A DNA stretch of 64,000 bases from Escherichia coli (lineage in GTDB: Bacteria > Pseudomonadota > Gammaproteobacteria > Enterobacterales > Enterobacteriaceae): assembly GCF_024502345.1 (NCBI RefSeq), contig NZ_JALDNN010000001.1, one strand, 5' to 3'. A model generated the notes under the pieces. The model did no database searches and was not told where the DNA came from. It saw only the letters and a program-made list of their open reading frames with translations. Position numbers and translations under genes: made by a program. Shown here piece by piece: positions 5,790 to 16,034 of this stretch; the first letter of the stretch is position 1; each line of letters starts with the position of its first letter.

Positions 5790-6229
5790 AAAGCCATGAC
5801 CTGAAGAAAGCGCTGTGTCAATGGACGGCGATGCTGGCCCTGGTGGTAAGCGGCGCGGTTTGGGCGGCTAATGGCGTCGATTTTAGCCAGTCGCCGGAAG
5901 TATCCGGGACGCAGGAAGGGGCCATTCGGATGCCAAAAGAGCAGGATCGGATGCCGCTGAACTATGTGAATCAGCCGCCAATGATCCCGCATAGCGTTGA
6001 AGGTTATCAGGTAACGACCAATACCAACCGCTGCTTGCAGTGCCACGGTGTCGAAAGCTATCGCACCACTGGCGCGCCGCGTATCAGTCCTACTCACTTT
6101 ATGGACAGCGACGGCAAAGTGGGCGCGGAAGTGGCTCCGCGTCGTTATTTCTGTCTGCAATGTCACGTACCGCAGGCCGATACCGCGCCAATCGTGGGGA
6201 ATACCTTTACCCCATCAAATACCGAATGA
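5786..6229 (+). CDS. napB: dihaem cytochrome c NapB, with C-terminus altered by a novel joint
   Basis: [13 protein letters not shown]...; two CxxCH haem motifs; the last residues (..TPSNTE) differ from the recalled K-12 C-terminus (..TPSKGYGK). Confidence 0.9.
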   Translation: MKSHDLKKALCQWTAMLALVVSGAVWAANGVDFSQSPEVSGTQEGAIRMPKEQDRMPLNYVNQPPMIPHSVEGYQVTTNTNRCLQCHGVESYRTTGAPRISPTHFMDSDGKVGAEVAPRRYFCLQCHVPQADTAPIVGNTFTPSNTE

Positions 6230-6671
6230 AGTGGACTATCGAAAATTGCAGGAACTGTTCACGCGGATCGCCATCGATAAACATATTCAGCAAAAGCTTG
6301 AACATCCTCACCACCAGCTGGTGGCTACCTACCAGTCATTAAACCGCAAGTATTCAGAATTGCTGGAGGAATACAAAATCCTTCGGCGCTGCTTCTCTGT
6401 TTCCGCTCTTGTTCCTTATACCGACGTATGGACACATAAGCCTGTTCAGTTTTATCCAGGCAAACATCCATGCGAAAAACCTGCCGACATGCTGAAACAG
6501 ATCATTAGCGCCAGCAGCAGACCGGGGGATATCGTTGCCGATTTCTTTATGGGCTCTGGTTCAACTGTGAAAGCTGCAATAGAACTTGGCCGTCGGGCGA
6601 TCGGCGTAGAACTGGAGGCAGACAGGTTTATACAGACCACCGAAGAGGTGGAAAAACTGAAAAAATCATAA
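6220..6671 (+). pseudogene. 5'-truncated N6-adenine/N4-cytosine DNA methyltransferase (C-terminal fragment only)
   Basis: Translation contains HPCEKP then DIVADFFMGSGSTVKAAIELGRRAIGVE (SAM-binding FxGxG block of beta-class MTases); no start codon and no N-terminal DPPY catalytic motif; reading frame begins at the napB joint. Confidence 0.7.
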
Positions 6672-6816: not shown

Positions 6817-7095
6817 ATGACCAGAATGAGCACCATTTACAGCAGACTTTCATATGGATCAGGAACCACGCTTGCCGGCTGCGGTGTATCAGCGAAGGCA
6901 TATGCCGAAACAGCTAAAACAGCAAAAGAGGTGTCCTGGATGTTGGCCGACAGAATTGCAGGGTTAAGCCTGAGTGACTGGGCAATTATTGTCGGTATCG
7001 CATGCACAGTTATCACCTGTGCAGTGAACTGGTATTACAGGAAAAAGGAAAGGGAGGACCGGCTTAATGGCAATGTCACCAAAGCAGAAGAATAA
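6817..7095 (+). CDS. phage holin
   Basis: 92 aa, hydrophobic helix WAIIVGIACTVITCAVNWYY, charged C-terminus, immediately upstream of endolysin. Confidence 0.7.
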   Translation: MTRMSTIYSRLSYGSGTTLAGCGVSAKAYAETAKTAKEVSWMLADRIAGLSLSDWAIIVGIACTVITCAVNWYYRKKEREDRLNGNVTKAEE

Positions 7096-7615
7096 ACTGA
7101 GCGCAGCGGTCGTTGGGTTAATTCTTGCCGGGGCTTCCGCACCCGTGATTCTCGATCAGTTTCTGGATGAGAAAGAGGGTAACAGCACAACAGCGTACAA
7201 GGACGGCTCTGGTATATGGACCATTTGTCGTGGCGCTACGATGGTTGATGGCAAGCCAGTAGTTCAGGGCATGAAGCTGTCTGCTGAGAAATGTTCCAAG
7301 GTGAACGCCATAGAACGCGACAAGGCGCTGGCGTGGGTCGAGCGAAACATCAAGGTGCCACTGACCGAACCACAGAAAGCCGGGATCGCGTCTTTCTGCC
7401 CATATAACATCGGTCCCGGAAAATGTTTCCCATCTACGTTCTATAAGCGAATAAATGCTGGCGACCGTGAAGGTGCCTGTGAAGCGATCCGCTGGTGGAT
7501 AAAAGACGGTGGTCGCGATTGTCGTCTGACCAAAGGGCAGAAGAACGGTTGCTATGGTCAGGTTGAACGGCGAGACCAGGAAAGCGCGTTGACGTGCTGG
7601 GGGATAGACCAGTGA
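7067..7615 (+). CDS. phage endolysin, lysozyme family with N-terminal signal-anchor (SAR-type)
   Basis: 182 aa; N-terminal hydrophobic [18 protein letters not shown] followed by lysozyme-like body; position between holin and Rz. Confidence 0.8.
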
Positions 7616-8127
7616 GCCTGCGCTATCAGTTCATTGTTATTTTGTTGCTGGTGGCCGTTGCATTCTTCGCGGGTAGTGTATGGAGCAGCCGCGGTTGGGA
7701 AAAGAAGTGGGCCGAGCGTGACAGCGTAGAATCATCGCAAACAGCGAACGCACAGACCGCCGCTCGCATGATTGAACAAGGGCGTATTATTGCCCGTGAT
7801 GAGGCTGTAAAAGATGCACAAGCACAAGCCGCTAAATCCGCTGCCACTGCTGCTGGCCTGTCTGCCACTGTTAACCAGCTGCGTACCGAAGCAACAAAGC
7901 TTGCCACTCGCCTGGACGCCGCAAAGCACACCGCAGATCTTGCCACTGCCGTCAGAAGCAAAACAGCCGGAGCCGACGCCGCAGTGCTCGCCGACATGCT
8001 CGGACGCCTTGCAGAAGAAGCTCGATATTATGCTGAGCGATCTGACGAAAGCTACCGGGCAGGAATGACGTGTGAGCGCATTTACGACTCAGTGAGGCAG
8101 TCAAACAACAACAGGGTTAGAAGATGA
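7594..8127 (+). CDS. i-spanin (Rz-like); true start may be GTG at 7612
   Basis: N-terminal TM ([15 protein letters not shown]), coiled-coil Ala/Gln-rich periplasmic domain; Rz1 nested in +1 frame. Confidence 0.8.
7814..8068 (+). CDS. o-spanin (Rz1-like lipoprotein) nested inside Rz
   Basis: Signal peptide with lipobox LLTSC, proline-rich mature region; entirely embedded in Rz in another frame. Confidence 0.75.
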
Positions 8128-8354: not shown

Positions 8355-8701
8355 ATGAGAACAACAATAAAAGGTTATGTCTGCTTTGCCACATTCTGAG
8401 AGTATGAGTTTTATTTGGTAGTCAATCAGTTACTTTATTGGTTTGCTTTCCGATGGAAGATAGATGTTTCCACAGAAGGGGCAAATTAACGTTATATTGT
8501 TTTTTATTCTCGACAGACTGTGCTTTGACTGGCGGGAGCAATGAGGACAAGTACTTTTCACATGGCGTAAAGTACGCATCTTGATATCTTTGAGTATCGA
8601 CATGTTGATTGTCCTGGTGGGCGGTTAACAACCATACACCACATGTTGGCTAATAGCTTCTTTTATAACCGTTACGATGTAGTCGTTAGCCATAATCAAT
8701 C

Positions 8702-9135: not shown

Positions 9136-9514
9136 ATTAAGATGTTGACGGTTTTCGTGGATAAATTTGTGAATTTTTACTATGAAGGAAATACGACTCT
9201 TCCTTGAGTCAAAATCCCTGACAACTTAGGGTGATAGATAAAGGTCTTACGCAGCATGACATAATTTTCGATTTAAGCTATTTAAATTAATTTTTAAGAT
9301 CAAAACCCACTGAGATTTACTTACAAAACTAAACCTTGCTATGTCTGGTTAATCATGCGTTAATGAATGTCTGGTTTGTAACGAATTTATCTGAAGCAGT
9401 CGCTGTAATAATTTTATTCCTTGTTCCTGTTGAGATTTCCTTGTTAGCTTTTCTCTCTGATAAATTTTTTTCGGACCATTCTGCCCAAGGGCTTACTCAA
9501 TAAAGGTAATGTTT

Positions 9515-9727
9515 ATGTCTAATAAAATGACTGGTTTAGTTAAATGGTTTAATCCTGAAAAAGGTTTTGGTTTTATCACTCCAAAAGATGGTAGTAAAGA
9601 TGTGTTTGTTCACTTCTCTGCTATCCAGAGTAATGATTTCAAGACGTTGAATGAGAATCAGGAAGTTGAATTTAGTGTTGAACAGGGACCTAAAGGCCCC
9701 ACGGCAGTTAATGTCGTGGCTGTATAA
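9515..9727 (+). CDS. cold-shock protein (CspA family), prophage-borne
   Basis: 70 aa [23 protein letters not shown]...; long AT-rich 5' leader typical of csp genes. Confidence 0.9.
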
Positions 9728-9931
9728 GGTAACTGTTATTACTAATAATATTCACTTCAGATGTCCGTGTTGCCACGGATCTCAGTACCGAACGTCAAAC
9801 TTTGATGTTACTGAAAAAAATCCTTTCGGAGCAAAATGTATTTTTTGCAAATCAACAATGATTACATTTGATAATATTGCACTGTACATTCGTTCTGGTC
9901 AGTCTTCGTTAGAATTCAGAAAATAAATTTC

Positions 9932-9955
9932 AGGCTCCTTATGGAGCCTTTTTTG
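9932..9955 (+). terminator. rho-independent terminator
   Basis: aggctcc-ttat-ggagcct followed by tttttt. Confidence 0.7.
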
Positions 9956-9999
9956 TATGCTGAACCGACAATCTCTGTAAGAGACATCACGGTAAAATT

Positions 10000-10230
10000 A
10001 TGAAAAAAGTCATCGTTTTTTTTAATGCAGAACCAGCAGTTGTTGTAACCGTAATGAAAGGTATTACTACGATAATGCGTGAGTTTCCCAATGGGGAAAA
10101 AGCACACCTACCCGTGATGTCAGCGGGATTTCCATCTCTGACAGGAGACCATAAAATAGTTTATGTAGCCTCTGATCGTGATGTCAGTTCAGAAGAGATC
10201 CTCGAGGCAGCCTCGAAGCTTTTGAAATGA
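10000..10230 (+). CDS. hypothetical protein
   Basis: 76 aa ORF; weak RBS; no recognisable motif. Confidence 0.35.
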   Translation: MKKVIVFFNAEPAVVVTVMKGITTIMREFPNGEKAHLPVMSAGFPSLTGDHKIVYVASDRDVSSEEILEAASKLLK

Positions 10231-10434: not shown

Positions 10435-10608
10435 ATGAACGTCGAAGATTTAAAAAGAAAAACTGAAGCGGATATTTCTGAATTCATCACAAAAAAAATT
10501 ATTGAACTCAAAAAAAAGACAGGAAAAGAAGTTTCCGATATCCAGTTTAATGCTCGTGAAAAAATGACTGGGCTTGAAAGCTATGATATTAAAATCACAT
10601 TAATCTAA
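10435..10608 (+). CDS. GnsA/GnsB-family small protein
   Basis: 57 aa MNVEDLKRKTEADISEFITKKIIELKKKTGKEVSDIQFNAREKMTGLESYDIKITLI; strong similarity to recalled GnsA/GnsB; below the 60-aa cutoff of the ORF track. Confidence 0.8.
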   Translation: MNVEDLKRKTEADISEFITKKIIELKKKTGKEVSDIQFNAREKMTGLESYDIKITLI

Positions 10609-13252: not shown

Positions 13253-13402
13253 TGTCCCATGTCCCACCTCTGGCGATCATTACGGACACCTCGCCAGCTC
13301 TGGCTATTCCAGTTTATTCCAGTGGGACATTCTGGTGGGACATGGCAAAAATGTCCCAGGCGAATGTCCCACCCCAGAAAATGTCCCAGGTGATGTCCCA
13401 TG
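13253..13402. repeat. Cluster of eight TGTCCCA/TGGGACA heptamer repeats immediately upstream of terminase small subunit
   Basis: Copies at 13253, 13260, 13323(rc), 13336(rc), 13352, 13365, 13382, 13394; the last overlaps the terS ATG. Confidence 0.7.
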
Positions 13403-13969
13403 ACCACGATGAACCAGAGTCAGTACGCACAACATTCAGGTGTGGATCGCAAAACAATTGGTCGGTGGATTAAAGCCGGGCGCTTCATTGTGATGGACGG
13501 AGACCTGATTGACGTAGAGGCCAGCGATGCGGCATTGAAGAAAAACCGCGATGGCAAAGACCCGCGCGCCTCGAACGCGAAGAAAAAGAAAACTCCCGTC
13601 GTTAGCGATAACGATGATGACGGTGATGAAATCAATAAAACTGTCCGCCAGATAATGCTCACTGAAGGGGCAGATCTTTCGAGAGAGGAAGCGGGACGTA
13701 TCCGCGAGAATTACATGGCCCTGCAGGCAAAGCTGCAGTATGAAAAAGACAGCGGCCAGCTTATTGAGCTGACAGCAGCCGAGGAGGTTTTATTCAACGC
13801 CTTTCGCCAACAGCGTGATGCCTGGCTTAACTGGCCGTCCAGGGTGGCGCCGCTAATGGCTGCTGATCTGGATGTACCGGCGGACAGGATGACAGAGGTG
13901 CTGATTGAACATGTCCACAAACACATCTCAGTCCTCGGAGAGCCAGAGTTTAACCCGGCAGAAGATTGA
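13400..13969 (+). CDS. terminase small subunit (Nu1-like, N-terminal HTH)
   Basis: 189 aa; N-terminal ..VDRKTIGRWIKAGRF.. winged-helix pattern as in lambda Nu1; followed by large terminase. Confidence 0.7.
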   Translation: MTTMNQSQYAQHSGVDRKTIGRWIKAGRFIVMDGDLIDVEASDAALKKNRDGKDPRASNAKKKKTPVVSDNDDDGDEINKTVRQIMLTEGADLSREEAGRIRENYMALQAKLQYEKDSGQLIELTAAEEVLFNAFRQQRDAWLNWPSRVAPLMAADLDVPADRMTEVLIEHVHKHISVLGEPEFNPAED

Positions 13970-16034
13970 GCGTCTTGAATTAAGCGTCCGCAAAGGCTGG
14001 ACACCCCCGCCGCGTATCAGTGTGCCGCAGTGGGCAGATGACTATCGTAAGCTGGCAAAAGAGGCTGGGAGCACTTCGGGAAACTGGGAAACATCGACGG
14101 TAGAAATTGCCCGCGGACCGATGCTTGCCGCGACGGAGTCCGGGGTTCATATCATCACTGTAATGTGCTGTACCCAGTTGATGAAGACAGCACTGCTGGA
14201 AAACCTTTTTGGCTATTTTGCCCACCTCGATCCTTGTCCGATACTGCTGCTGCAGCCGAAAGAAGAAGCCGCTGAACAGTTTTCGAAAGAGCGTATTAGC
14301 CCGCTGGTAAGGGTGACGCCGGTACTGCGTAAAATCATCGGTGATTCGAAACAGAAAAGCTCGAAAGAAACCATTCTTTACAAGGCATTCACTGGCGGAT
14401 TTCTGGCGCTGGCGGGTGCTGGTAGCCCTGATAACCTTGCGCGTCGTCCGATTCGTGTCCTGCTGGCGGATGAAGTGGACAAGTACCCGATAACCCGCGA
14501 AGGCGATCCAATTGCGCTGGCCGAAGAGCGTACAGCGACATTTGGCCTGACCTGGCTGTCTGTACGCGCCTGTTCGCCGACGGTGGAGGATGAGAGCCGC
14601 ATTGCTGACAGCTACGCCGACTCCGATCAGCGCCGGGCATCTGTGGTTTGCCCGCACTGTGGCCACCGCCAGTTCCCCGACTTTTTCAAACACGTTCAGT
14701 GGCCGAAAGAGGGAGATAAACACCTGACTAAATCGGCGATGCTCTATTGCGAATGCTGTGGTAGTGGCTGGTCCGAAGGACAGCGCCTCAGAGCTCTGCA
14801 CACTATTCGATGGCATCAGACGCGCCCATTTGAGTGCTGCGGGGAGCGGCACTCACCGCTGATGGATTATGACCTTGCCTGGCGGGCGGCAGACGAGGGC
14901 AGCGTTGAAAAGGTCTGGCAATGGTCAGAGTCGGAACGGCATGCGGTCTATCGCGCAATCTGCCCCTCCTGTGGAAAGGAGGCAGTCGATAACCACCACG
15001 CGGGGTACCAGGCATCCAAGCTTTTCAGCCCCTGGCAAAAAGATAAGCCGTCGGATATTGCGAAAAAATATATCGATGCGAAGGGCGATCCGGATAAGGA
15101 ACAGGCGTGGTGGAATACCCAGATGGGGCTTCCGCACCGACCTAATCATGGGAAACAGCTCCCTGTTGATGTTCTGCTGGCGCGCCGGGAAATATTTCCG
15201 GCCGTCGTTCCGGACGGGGTGGCATTGTTAACAGCTGGAGTTGATACCCAGGACGATCGCTTCGAAATTACGATCACCGGCTGGGGGAGAGATGAAGAAT
15301 CGTGGTCGGTCGCGCATGACGTTATTTATGGTGACCTTGAGACGGAAGAACCCTGGAAGCGACTGGATGCATACCTGAAACAGATCTGGCGACGTGGTGA
15401 CGGGCGCGGCCTGAATATCATGGCAACGTGCATGGACTCCGGTGGCCACCATACGCAGAAGGTATACGAATTCGCCAAAGAGCGTCTTGGCCGTCGTGTC
15501 TGGGCAATTAAGGGGGAGTCTGCACAGGGAGGTAAACGCAATCCTGTCTGGCCGACCAAACGACCATCATCGAAAAGCAAAGCCAGTTTCCGCCCTGTCA
15601 TTCTGGGGGTTAACTCAGCGAAAGACGTGATACGCGGTCGCCTGCATCTTGAGCCACCCAAACCTGGCGCCGCCGCTGCGGGTTATATGCATTTTCCTGA
15701 CGATCGCGATCTCGGGTACTTCAATCAGCTGCTGGCGGAGCGACTGGTTTACAAAGTCATTTCCGGGCAGCGGTACAGTATCTGGGAAGCAATACCAGGA
15801 CGAGCTAACGAAGCGCTTGACTGCCTCGTTTACAGCTATGCCGCGCTGTGCGGTCTCAAACATATGGGGTTAAAACTCAACGTCCGGGCCGCCAACCTCG
15901 AAGCCGATCCGGATAAGTTCCTGCCAGCGCCAGTTGGACAGGAAGAAAAAATCAATTACGAGCTGCCGGGTGCGGTTATTGAAGAACCAGCGCCGGTCAA
16001 ACGTAAGCGAATATCGCAACTCCTGCCGAAATAA
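13905..16034 (+). CDS. terminase large subunit (lambda gpA-like)
   Basis: 709 aa, position and size; overlaps terS 3' end as in lambda Nu1/A. Confidence 0.8.
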   Translation: MNMSTNTSQSSESQSLTRQKIERLELSVRKGWTPPPRISVPQWADDYRKLAKEAGSTSGNWETSTVEIARGPMLAATESGVHIITVMCCTQLMKTALLENLFGYFAHLDPCPILLLQPKEEAAEQFSKERISPLVRVTPVLRKIIGDSKQKSSKETILYKAFTGGFLALAGAGSPDNLARRPIRVLLADEVDKYPITREGDPIALAEERTATFGLTWLSVRACSPTVEDESRIADSYADSDQRRASVVCPHCGHRQFPDFFKHVQWPKEGDKHLTKSAMLYCECCGSGWSEGQRLRALHTIRWHQTRPFECCGERHSPLMDYDLAWRAADEGSVEKVWQWSESERHAVYRAICPSCGKEAVDNHHAGYQASKLFSPWQKDKPSDIAKKYIDAKGDPDKEQAWWNTQMGLPHRPNHGKQLPVDVLLARREIFPAVVPDGVALLTAGVDTQDDRFEITITGWGRDEESWSVAHDVIYGDLETEEPWKRLDAYLKQIWRRGDGRGLNIMATCMDSGGHHTQKVYEFAKERLGRRVWAIKGESAQGGKRNPVWPTKRPSSKSKASFRPVILGVNSAKDVIRGRLHLEPPKPGAAAAGYMHFPDDRDLGYFNQLLAERLVYKVISGQRYSIWEAIPGRANEALDCLVYSYAALCGLKHMGLKLNVRAANLEADPDKFLPAPVGQEEKINYELPGAVIEEPAPVKRKRISQLLPK

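Follow-up and report, generated by a model that had tools for sequence, protein, structure and literature searches.

Gene content of the locus

The DNA analysed, a stretch of 64,000 nucleotides from Escherichia coli hereafter called the window, carries a ymcF-like gene within a lambdoid prophage, between the lysis genes and the terminase genes. The prophage features on either side of it are the following, in coordinates of the window.

6048-6671, + strand: DNA methyltransferase-like ORF (phrog_6952, E=1e-81), just upstream of the holin/endolysin/Rz cassette
6817-7095: holin
7067-7615: endolysin
7594-8127: Rz-like spanin
8433-8603, − strand: YnfU-family zinc-binding gene of 57 aa with the motifs CPHC...CPFC (NCBIfam NF038384, 76.4 bits, cutoff 36)
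10000-10230, + strand: ynfN-like gene, after the csp-ymcF unit as in Qin
10435-10608, + strand: GnsA/GnsB-like (gnsB-like) gene, after the csp-ymcF unit as in Qin
13400-16034: terminase, small and large subunits

The order of the lysis genes, the ynfN-like gene, the gnsB-like gene and the terminase is that of the Qin prophage, and the ynfN-like and gnsB-like genes fall into PHROGs families of unknown function (phrog_3425 and phrog_2301, respectively). The YnfU-family gene on the opposite strand is located between the lysis cassette and csp. The csp-ymcF unit itself comprises the following features.

9370-9786, + strand: cspA thermoregulator element (Rfam RF01766, covering model positions 1-428 of 428 with 142.8 bits; gathering score 78)
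9515-9727, + strand: csp gene of the CspG/CspI type (NCBIfam NF007378 CspG; 145.4 bits, cutoff 144), with the start that the model alignment makes likely
9711-9713, + strand: ATG in the ymcF frame, the rival start, giving a 71-aa product that would read MSWLYKVTV followed by the 62-aa sequence with Ile replacing the initiator Met
9725-9730, + strand: Shine-Dalgarno-like TAAGGT, which includes the csp stop codon TAA (9725-9727) and leaves an A/T-rich 8-nt spacer to the ATT
9738-9926, + strand: ymcF/ynfQ-family gene, 62 codons and a stop, with ATT 9738-9740 as the probable start codon
9762-9764, 9771-9773, 9837-9839 and 9846-9848, + strand: codons of Cys9, Cys12, Cys34 and Cys37, the likely metal ligands
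9932-9955, + strand: intrinsic-terminator-like hairpin AGGCTCC-TTAT-GGAGCCT with a T run, stem at 9932-9949

The RF01766 element covers a long 5′ UTR together with the csp coding region, and its 3′-end reaches the first ymcF codons. The csp ORF as delimited mechanically extends from 9509 to 9727, and since the NF007378 alignment begins from residue 3, the csp coding sequence is likely 9515-9727. An earlier reading of the letters and ORFs alone (the sequence-only reading) had described an open frame with a cysteine motif running from directly after a csp gene to 9926, ahead of a terminator. Each of these points was borne out: the csp gene is present immediately upstream, the frame is open on the + strand up to its stop codon TAA at 9924-9926, the encoded peptide is identical to the one quoted (exactly ..IHFRCPCCHGSQYRTSNFDVTEKNPFGAKCIFCKSTMITFDNIALYIRSGQSSLEFRK), and the hairpin stem at 9932-9949 is followed by a T run. 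An equivalent hairpin is present after ymcF and ynfQ in E. coli. In this prophage, the ymcF-like gene very probably forms the second cistron of a cold-shock operon, which consists of a cspA-type thermosensing leader, csp, ymcF and a terminator.

At the distal end of this unit, the + strand region 9884-9960, i.e. the 3′-end of ymcF with the terminator, matched the Salmonella sRNA STnc220 (RF02077), though its 43 bits fall short of the gathering score of 60. In Salmonella diarizonae, the homologue (locus L011, 1647-1726) reaches 102 bits with RF02077 over the same gene part, and for this reason STnc220 appears to be the 3′-end of the transcript of csp and ymcF and not a separate gene.

A 20-codon ORF on the + strand (MEPFLYAEPTISVRDITVKL, 9941-10003) starts in the terminator hairpin loop, and its stop codon overlaps the start codon of the ynfN-like gene as ATGA. 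It lies in place of E. coli ynfR, but in another frame and with another sequence, and no family match was returned for it. The ynfR small protein is reported to rise after cold shock (PMC6001520).

Family membership

The translation from ATT 9738 matched all 62 positions (1-62) of Pfam PF23641 (YmcF-like), scoring 128.6 bits (gathering score 27; E-value 1e-37). PF23641 was present in all of the 138 homologues found in the database, the top match among them being 97% identical, 62 aa long and annotated as “cold shock small protein YmcF [Citrobacter]”. The exact 62-aa protein was found in at least 1000 public contigs. In an alignment of 31 sequences, the invariant columns F7, C9-P-C-C12-H-G-S-Q, G-A-K-(C34)-I-F-C37-K and M41 are all present in the window protein. 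No NCBIfam model scored above its threshold with the YmcF-like protein, the ECs_2282-type model NF047912 giving 16.9 bits against a cutoff of 37, and no PHROGs family was matched. Identity with YnfU was also considered and rejected, as YnfU belongs to a different family and BLASTP returned no alignment between the YmcF-like protein and K-12 YnfU.

Start codon and Shine-Dalgarno sequence

The ATT at 9738 is located 10 nt past the csp stop. The K-12 genes ymcF and ynfQ are annotated in RefSeq as 189-nt coding sequences, and reading of their DNA gave ATT as the first codon, 10 nt past the stops of cspG and cspI, respectively. The window aligns base for base with both, ATT 9738 being the equivalent codon, and the PGAP annotation of strain 32F4 likewise starts on an ATT located 10 nt after the csp stop. 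According to the sequence-only reading, the frame was either decayed or expressed by an unusual start or coupling, and the unusual start is the alternative supported here, by the annotated ATT position of K-12 ymcF/ynfQ and by the finding that 34 of 79 genomic copies, drawn from various genera, have ATG there.

The comparison drew on the best 80 of 192 genomic and the best 80 of 181 viral matches (373 in total), the former from genomes sampled one per species and the latter from viral contigs. The codon at the start position, eight codons before Cys9, was ATT in 38, ATG in 34, ATC in three and another codon in four of the 79 genomic copies. Three of the four remaining copies had ATG three codons upstream, and one had ATG as the next codon after a one-codon deletion. 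Because the position alternates only among ATG, ATT and ATC, it is to be regarded as the start codon. A T(A/G)AGG motif including the csp stop, with a spacer of 7-8 nt, was present in all csp-adjacent genomic copies (38/38). With high probability, therefore, as judged from these alignments, translation begins at the near-cognate AUU at 9738, 8 nt past the Shine-Dalgarno sequence TAAGG that overlaps the csp stop.

Another in-frame ATT, at codon 5 (9750), was rejected as a start, being CTC in E. coli ymcF and 20 nt distant from the Shine-Dalgarno sequence. In 20 copies, the 90 nt surrounding the start codon were folded jointly with RNAalifold, which gave −1.68 kcal/mol and a single base pair with compensatory changes; no conserved structure was thus found, and an RNA-unfolding switch at the start was unsupported. 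A small hairpin in the CPCCHG codons, which Rfam aligns to the cspA terminator, had no consistent covariation.

The earlier statement that no in-frame ATG, GTG or TTG precedes the cysteine motif holds for the 10-nt spacer (9728-9737) but fails farther upstream, where ATG 9711, TTG 9678, GTG 9675 and ATG 9651 are found, all four within the csp coding sequence and none separated from the cysteine motif by a stop. The strongest rival to AUU 9738 follows from this, namely initiation at ATG 9711, within csp, with a 71-aa product and an overlap of its first nine codons with the csp end, a reading that we consider unlikely. ATG 9711 is in frame with no stop between it and ymcF, and as both it and ATG 9651 lie on the open frame in the window, some initiation there would be possible by sequence. 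The exact 71-aa form from ATG 9711 occurs in 2 public contigs, being annotated in NCBI records of Citrobacter freundii (2 contigs), and 71-aa forms are present for C. youngae and C. farmeri. However, the extension is a by-product of the C-terminal codons of csp (..N-V-V..), and a stop codon interrupts it in 17 of the 41 ATT/ATC copies, among them two from Citrobacter (L006 and L010); in E. coli ynfQ the ATG is followed at once by TAG. In these same 17 of 41 copies, ynfQ and the two Citrobacter loci among them, no in-frame canonical start exists before the nearest upstream stop. Such stops in relatives imply that the nine-codon extension is accidental and not a conserved part of the protein. 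The nearest Shine-Dalgarno-like sequence, AAAGG, is 14 nt upstream of ATG 9711, a distance too great to serve a start well, and this ATG lies within a heavily translated cistron. Furthermore, the Pfam model and most annotations start at the ATT position.

The gene and its non-AUG start have both been described and annotated previously, so that the intact ymcF-like frame is real but not new. In 2017, D’Lima et al. (J Proteome Res 16:3722) reportedly found YmcF and YnfQ by proteomics, with cold induction, identified their ATT starts, and are said to have shown the ATT start by mutagenesis. Of nine phage genomes carrying the ymcF frame, six were deposited without annotation there (e.g. Escherichia phages 2H10 and mEp460_ev081), which fits gene callers skipping ATT starts. 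The lesson for annotation is that, since ATT is rarely used by gene callers, they may overlook a conserved, expressed small gene or assign it an incorrect, overlapping start.

Purifying selection and integrity of the reading frame

When codons 2-44 of the ymcF frame in the window were compared with 78 copies in other genomes, pN was 0.03-0.15 and pS 0.5-1.0, and the median dN/dS was 0.06 where it could be estimated. The ymcF frame is evidently, by these substitution rates, under strong purifying selection. The low dN/dS indicates that the ymcF-like gene is not decayed, and the purifying selection (78 copies compared, median dN/dS 0.06) contradicts the possibility of a chance ORF, which the sequence-only reading had raised as well. 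The region 9738-9926 is in all likelihood a real and intact gene of the YmcF/YnfQ family.

That the frame is instead a pseudogene which lost its start codon is highly improbable. The spacer after csp is indeed devoid of ATG, GTG and TTG, and the frame is unannotated in most phage records, but the match to the family model is full length, dN/dS is ca. 0.06, and ATT has been kept in 35 of 38 genomic and 74 of 77 viral csp-adjacent copies despite saturated synonymous divergence. In addition, the annotation of the homologues in E. coli is that of expressed, cold-induced proteins. The decayed-gene alternative is thereby refuted, by the full-length family match together with the strong conservation.

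Equally improbable is a Csp-YmcF fusion produced by +1 frameshifting or by read-through of the stop codon at the csp end, for which the ymcF frame, free of stops in the window over the final 77 nt of csp, and one natural in-frame csp-ymcF fusion (C. sedlakii, locus L016) could be cited, but against which stand a relative frame that is not conserved (a 10-nt gap in most genera, 9 nt in Kosakonia), many copies with stops in the ymcF frame just upstream, the existence of stand-alone ATG copies, and a conserved, optimally spaced Shine-Dalgarno sequence that points to independent initiation. In the said locus of Citrobacter sedlakii NBRC 105722 (L016, 1258-1689), a deletion at the csp end joins csp and ymcF in one frame, and an ATG is present at the ymcF start position.

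Adjacency to csp and identity of the start codon

Among the genomic copies, the 38 located 9-10 nt after a csp stop had ATT (35) or ATC (3) and no ATG, and the 41 located apart from csp had ATG (34), ATT (3) or another codon (4). In the viral contigs, 77 copies were located 9-10 nt after a csp stop, with ATT in 74, ATC in three and ATG in none; many of these viral copies are near-identical, 44 of them having one common sequence context. Three viral copies were scored as non-adjacent to csp, at least one of them being cut at a contig end. Taken together, ATT or ATC was found in 115 of 115 csp-adjacent copies (38 genomic and 77 viral) among the best 80 matches of each set. The gap between csp and ymcF was 10 nt in most genera and 9 nt in Kosakonia.

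Non-adjacent copies with ATG often had a stronger Shine-Dalgarno sequence, AGGAG, and among the 12 stand-alone ATG loci that were scanned, none had a cspA thermoregulator upstream. As exceptions, two loci (L057 and L079) carry ATT while being non-adjacent to csp, with no upstream partner ORF, and in one (L066) ATG is the next codon. The neighbour-joining tree was built on 40 residues and is poorly resolved, which makes a count of independent ATT-to-ATG transitions unreliable. An excess of ATT-to-ATC over ATT-to-ATG changes was not significant, given the transition bias and ca. 4-5 events.

The fixed spacing of 9-10 nt and a Shine-Dalgarno sequence that includes the csp stop make coupling of ymcF translation to csp plausible. 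Ribosomes that end csp would be positioned on the Shine-Dalgarno sequence and start codon of ymcF and reinitiate there (translational coupling), and the weak AUU start would hold YmcF synthesis at a low level that depends on translation of csp, hence on cold. According to a review of translational coupling, the efficiency of coupling is highest where intergenic distances are short (PMC12548453). The pattern of start codons suggests that the weak start may have been retained owing to translation being coupled to csp.

A further and more tentative proposal, to which we give slightly less than even credence, is that the AUU/AUC start is a selected trait tied to the csp stop. Only ribosomes coming directly from the completion of csp would then make YmcF, with a low YmcF:Csp ratio and strict cold dependence as the outcome, and AUG with a stronger Shine-Dalgarno sequence would be required outside the csp context. 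The strict tie of csp adjacency to a non-AUG start is the sole point presented here that is possibly new. If the rule is confirmed by experiment, it would constitute a natural example of start-codon strength tuned to translational coupling.

Predicted protein

The frame contains Cys codons at positions 9, 11, 12, 34 and 37 (CPCC...CIFC), forming the knuckle motif CxxC twice (C9/C12 and C34/C37). An AlphaFold2 model of the YmcF-like protein, made from the 31-sequence alignment, was of low confidence (pLDDT 56), and a profile search against PDB with the same protein returned nothing significant, the best E-value being 0.016. An AlphaFold3 model of YnfQ is described as having rubredoxin topology (PMC13348028). 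The YmcF-like protein may be pictured as binding zinc or iron via Cys9, Cys12, Cys34 and Cys37 in a rubredoxin or zinc-ribbon-like knuckle fold. Our best guess would be a Cys4 zinc/iron knuckle protein acting by partner binding during cold adaptation. The gene ynfQ is reported to be induced by cold shock together with cspI and ynfN (PMC11228462), and it is named among the uncharacterised genes of K-12 (PMC11551758).

Comparison with known systems

The closest described counterparts are in E. coli K-12, where YmcF (b4723) follows cspG, and YnfQ (b4724) follows cspI in the Qin prophage. Both are proteins of 62 aa with a CPCC...CxxC core and 74% identity with the window protein, and their genes share with the ymcF-like gene the Shine-Dalgarno sequence overlapping the csp stop, the ATT start and the terminator after the gene. 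With ynfQ in Qin, the window has also in common the ynfN-like and gnsB-like neighbours and the lysis genes upstream. The window protein differs from K-12 YmcF and YnfQ in its C-terminal 15 residues, which diverge, and the frame in the window is open upstream to the ATG inside csp, whereas that of ynfQ is closed there by TAG.

The YnfU family (NCBIfam NF038384) resembles the YmcF-like protein in that its protein is small, is encoded by a prophage and has two CPxC knuckles. Sequence similarity between it and the YmcF-like protein was not detectable, however, and the YnfU-family gene starts with an ordinary ATG and is oriented in the opposite direction.

A conserved AUU start that is kept and not swapped for AUG is likewise found in infC of E. 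coli, which encodes IF3. IF3 discriminates against AUU starts, as in the autoregulation of infC. The AUU of infC thus serves autoregulation by the gene’s own product, whereas the distinctive trait of ymcF is its tight linkage to an upstream stop codon; we know of no autoregulatory loop of the infC kind for ymcF. Overexpression of IF3 has been reported to lower reinitiation (PMC2268962).

RcsD-Hpt of Yersinia pestis, another bacterial protein, has been shown to be initiated at AUU from a ribosome-binding site of its own (PMC10191623), and the same article cites D’Lima et al. 2017 for AUU starts in bacteria. The two proteins are unrelated, and the start of RcsD-Hpt is internal to a frameshifted gene, whereas ymcF is a downstream cistron that begins after a stop codon.
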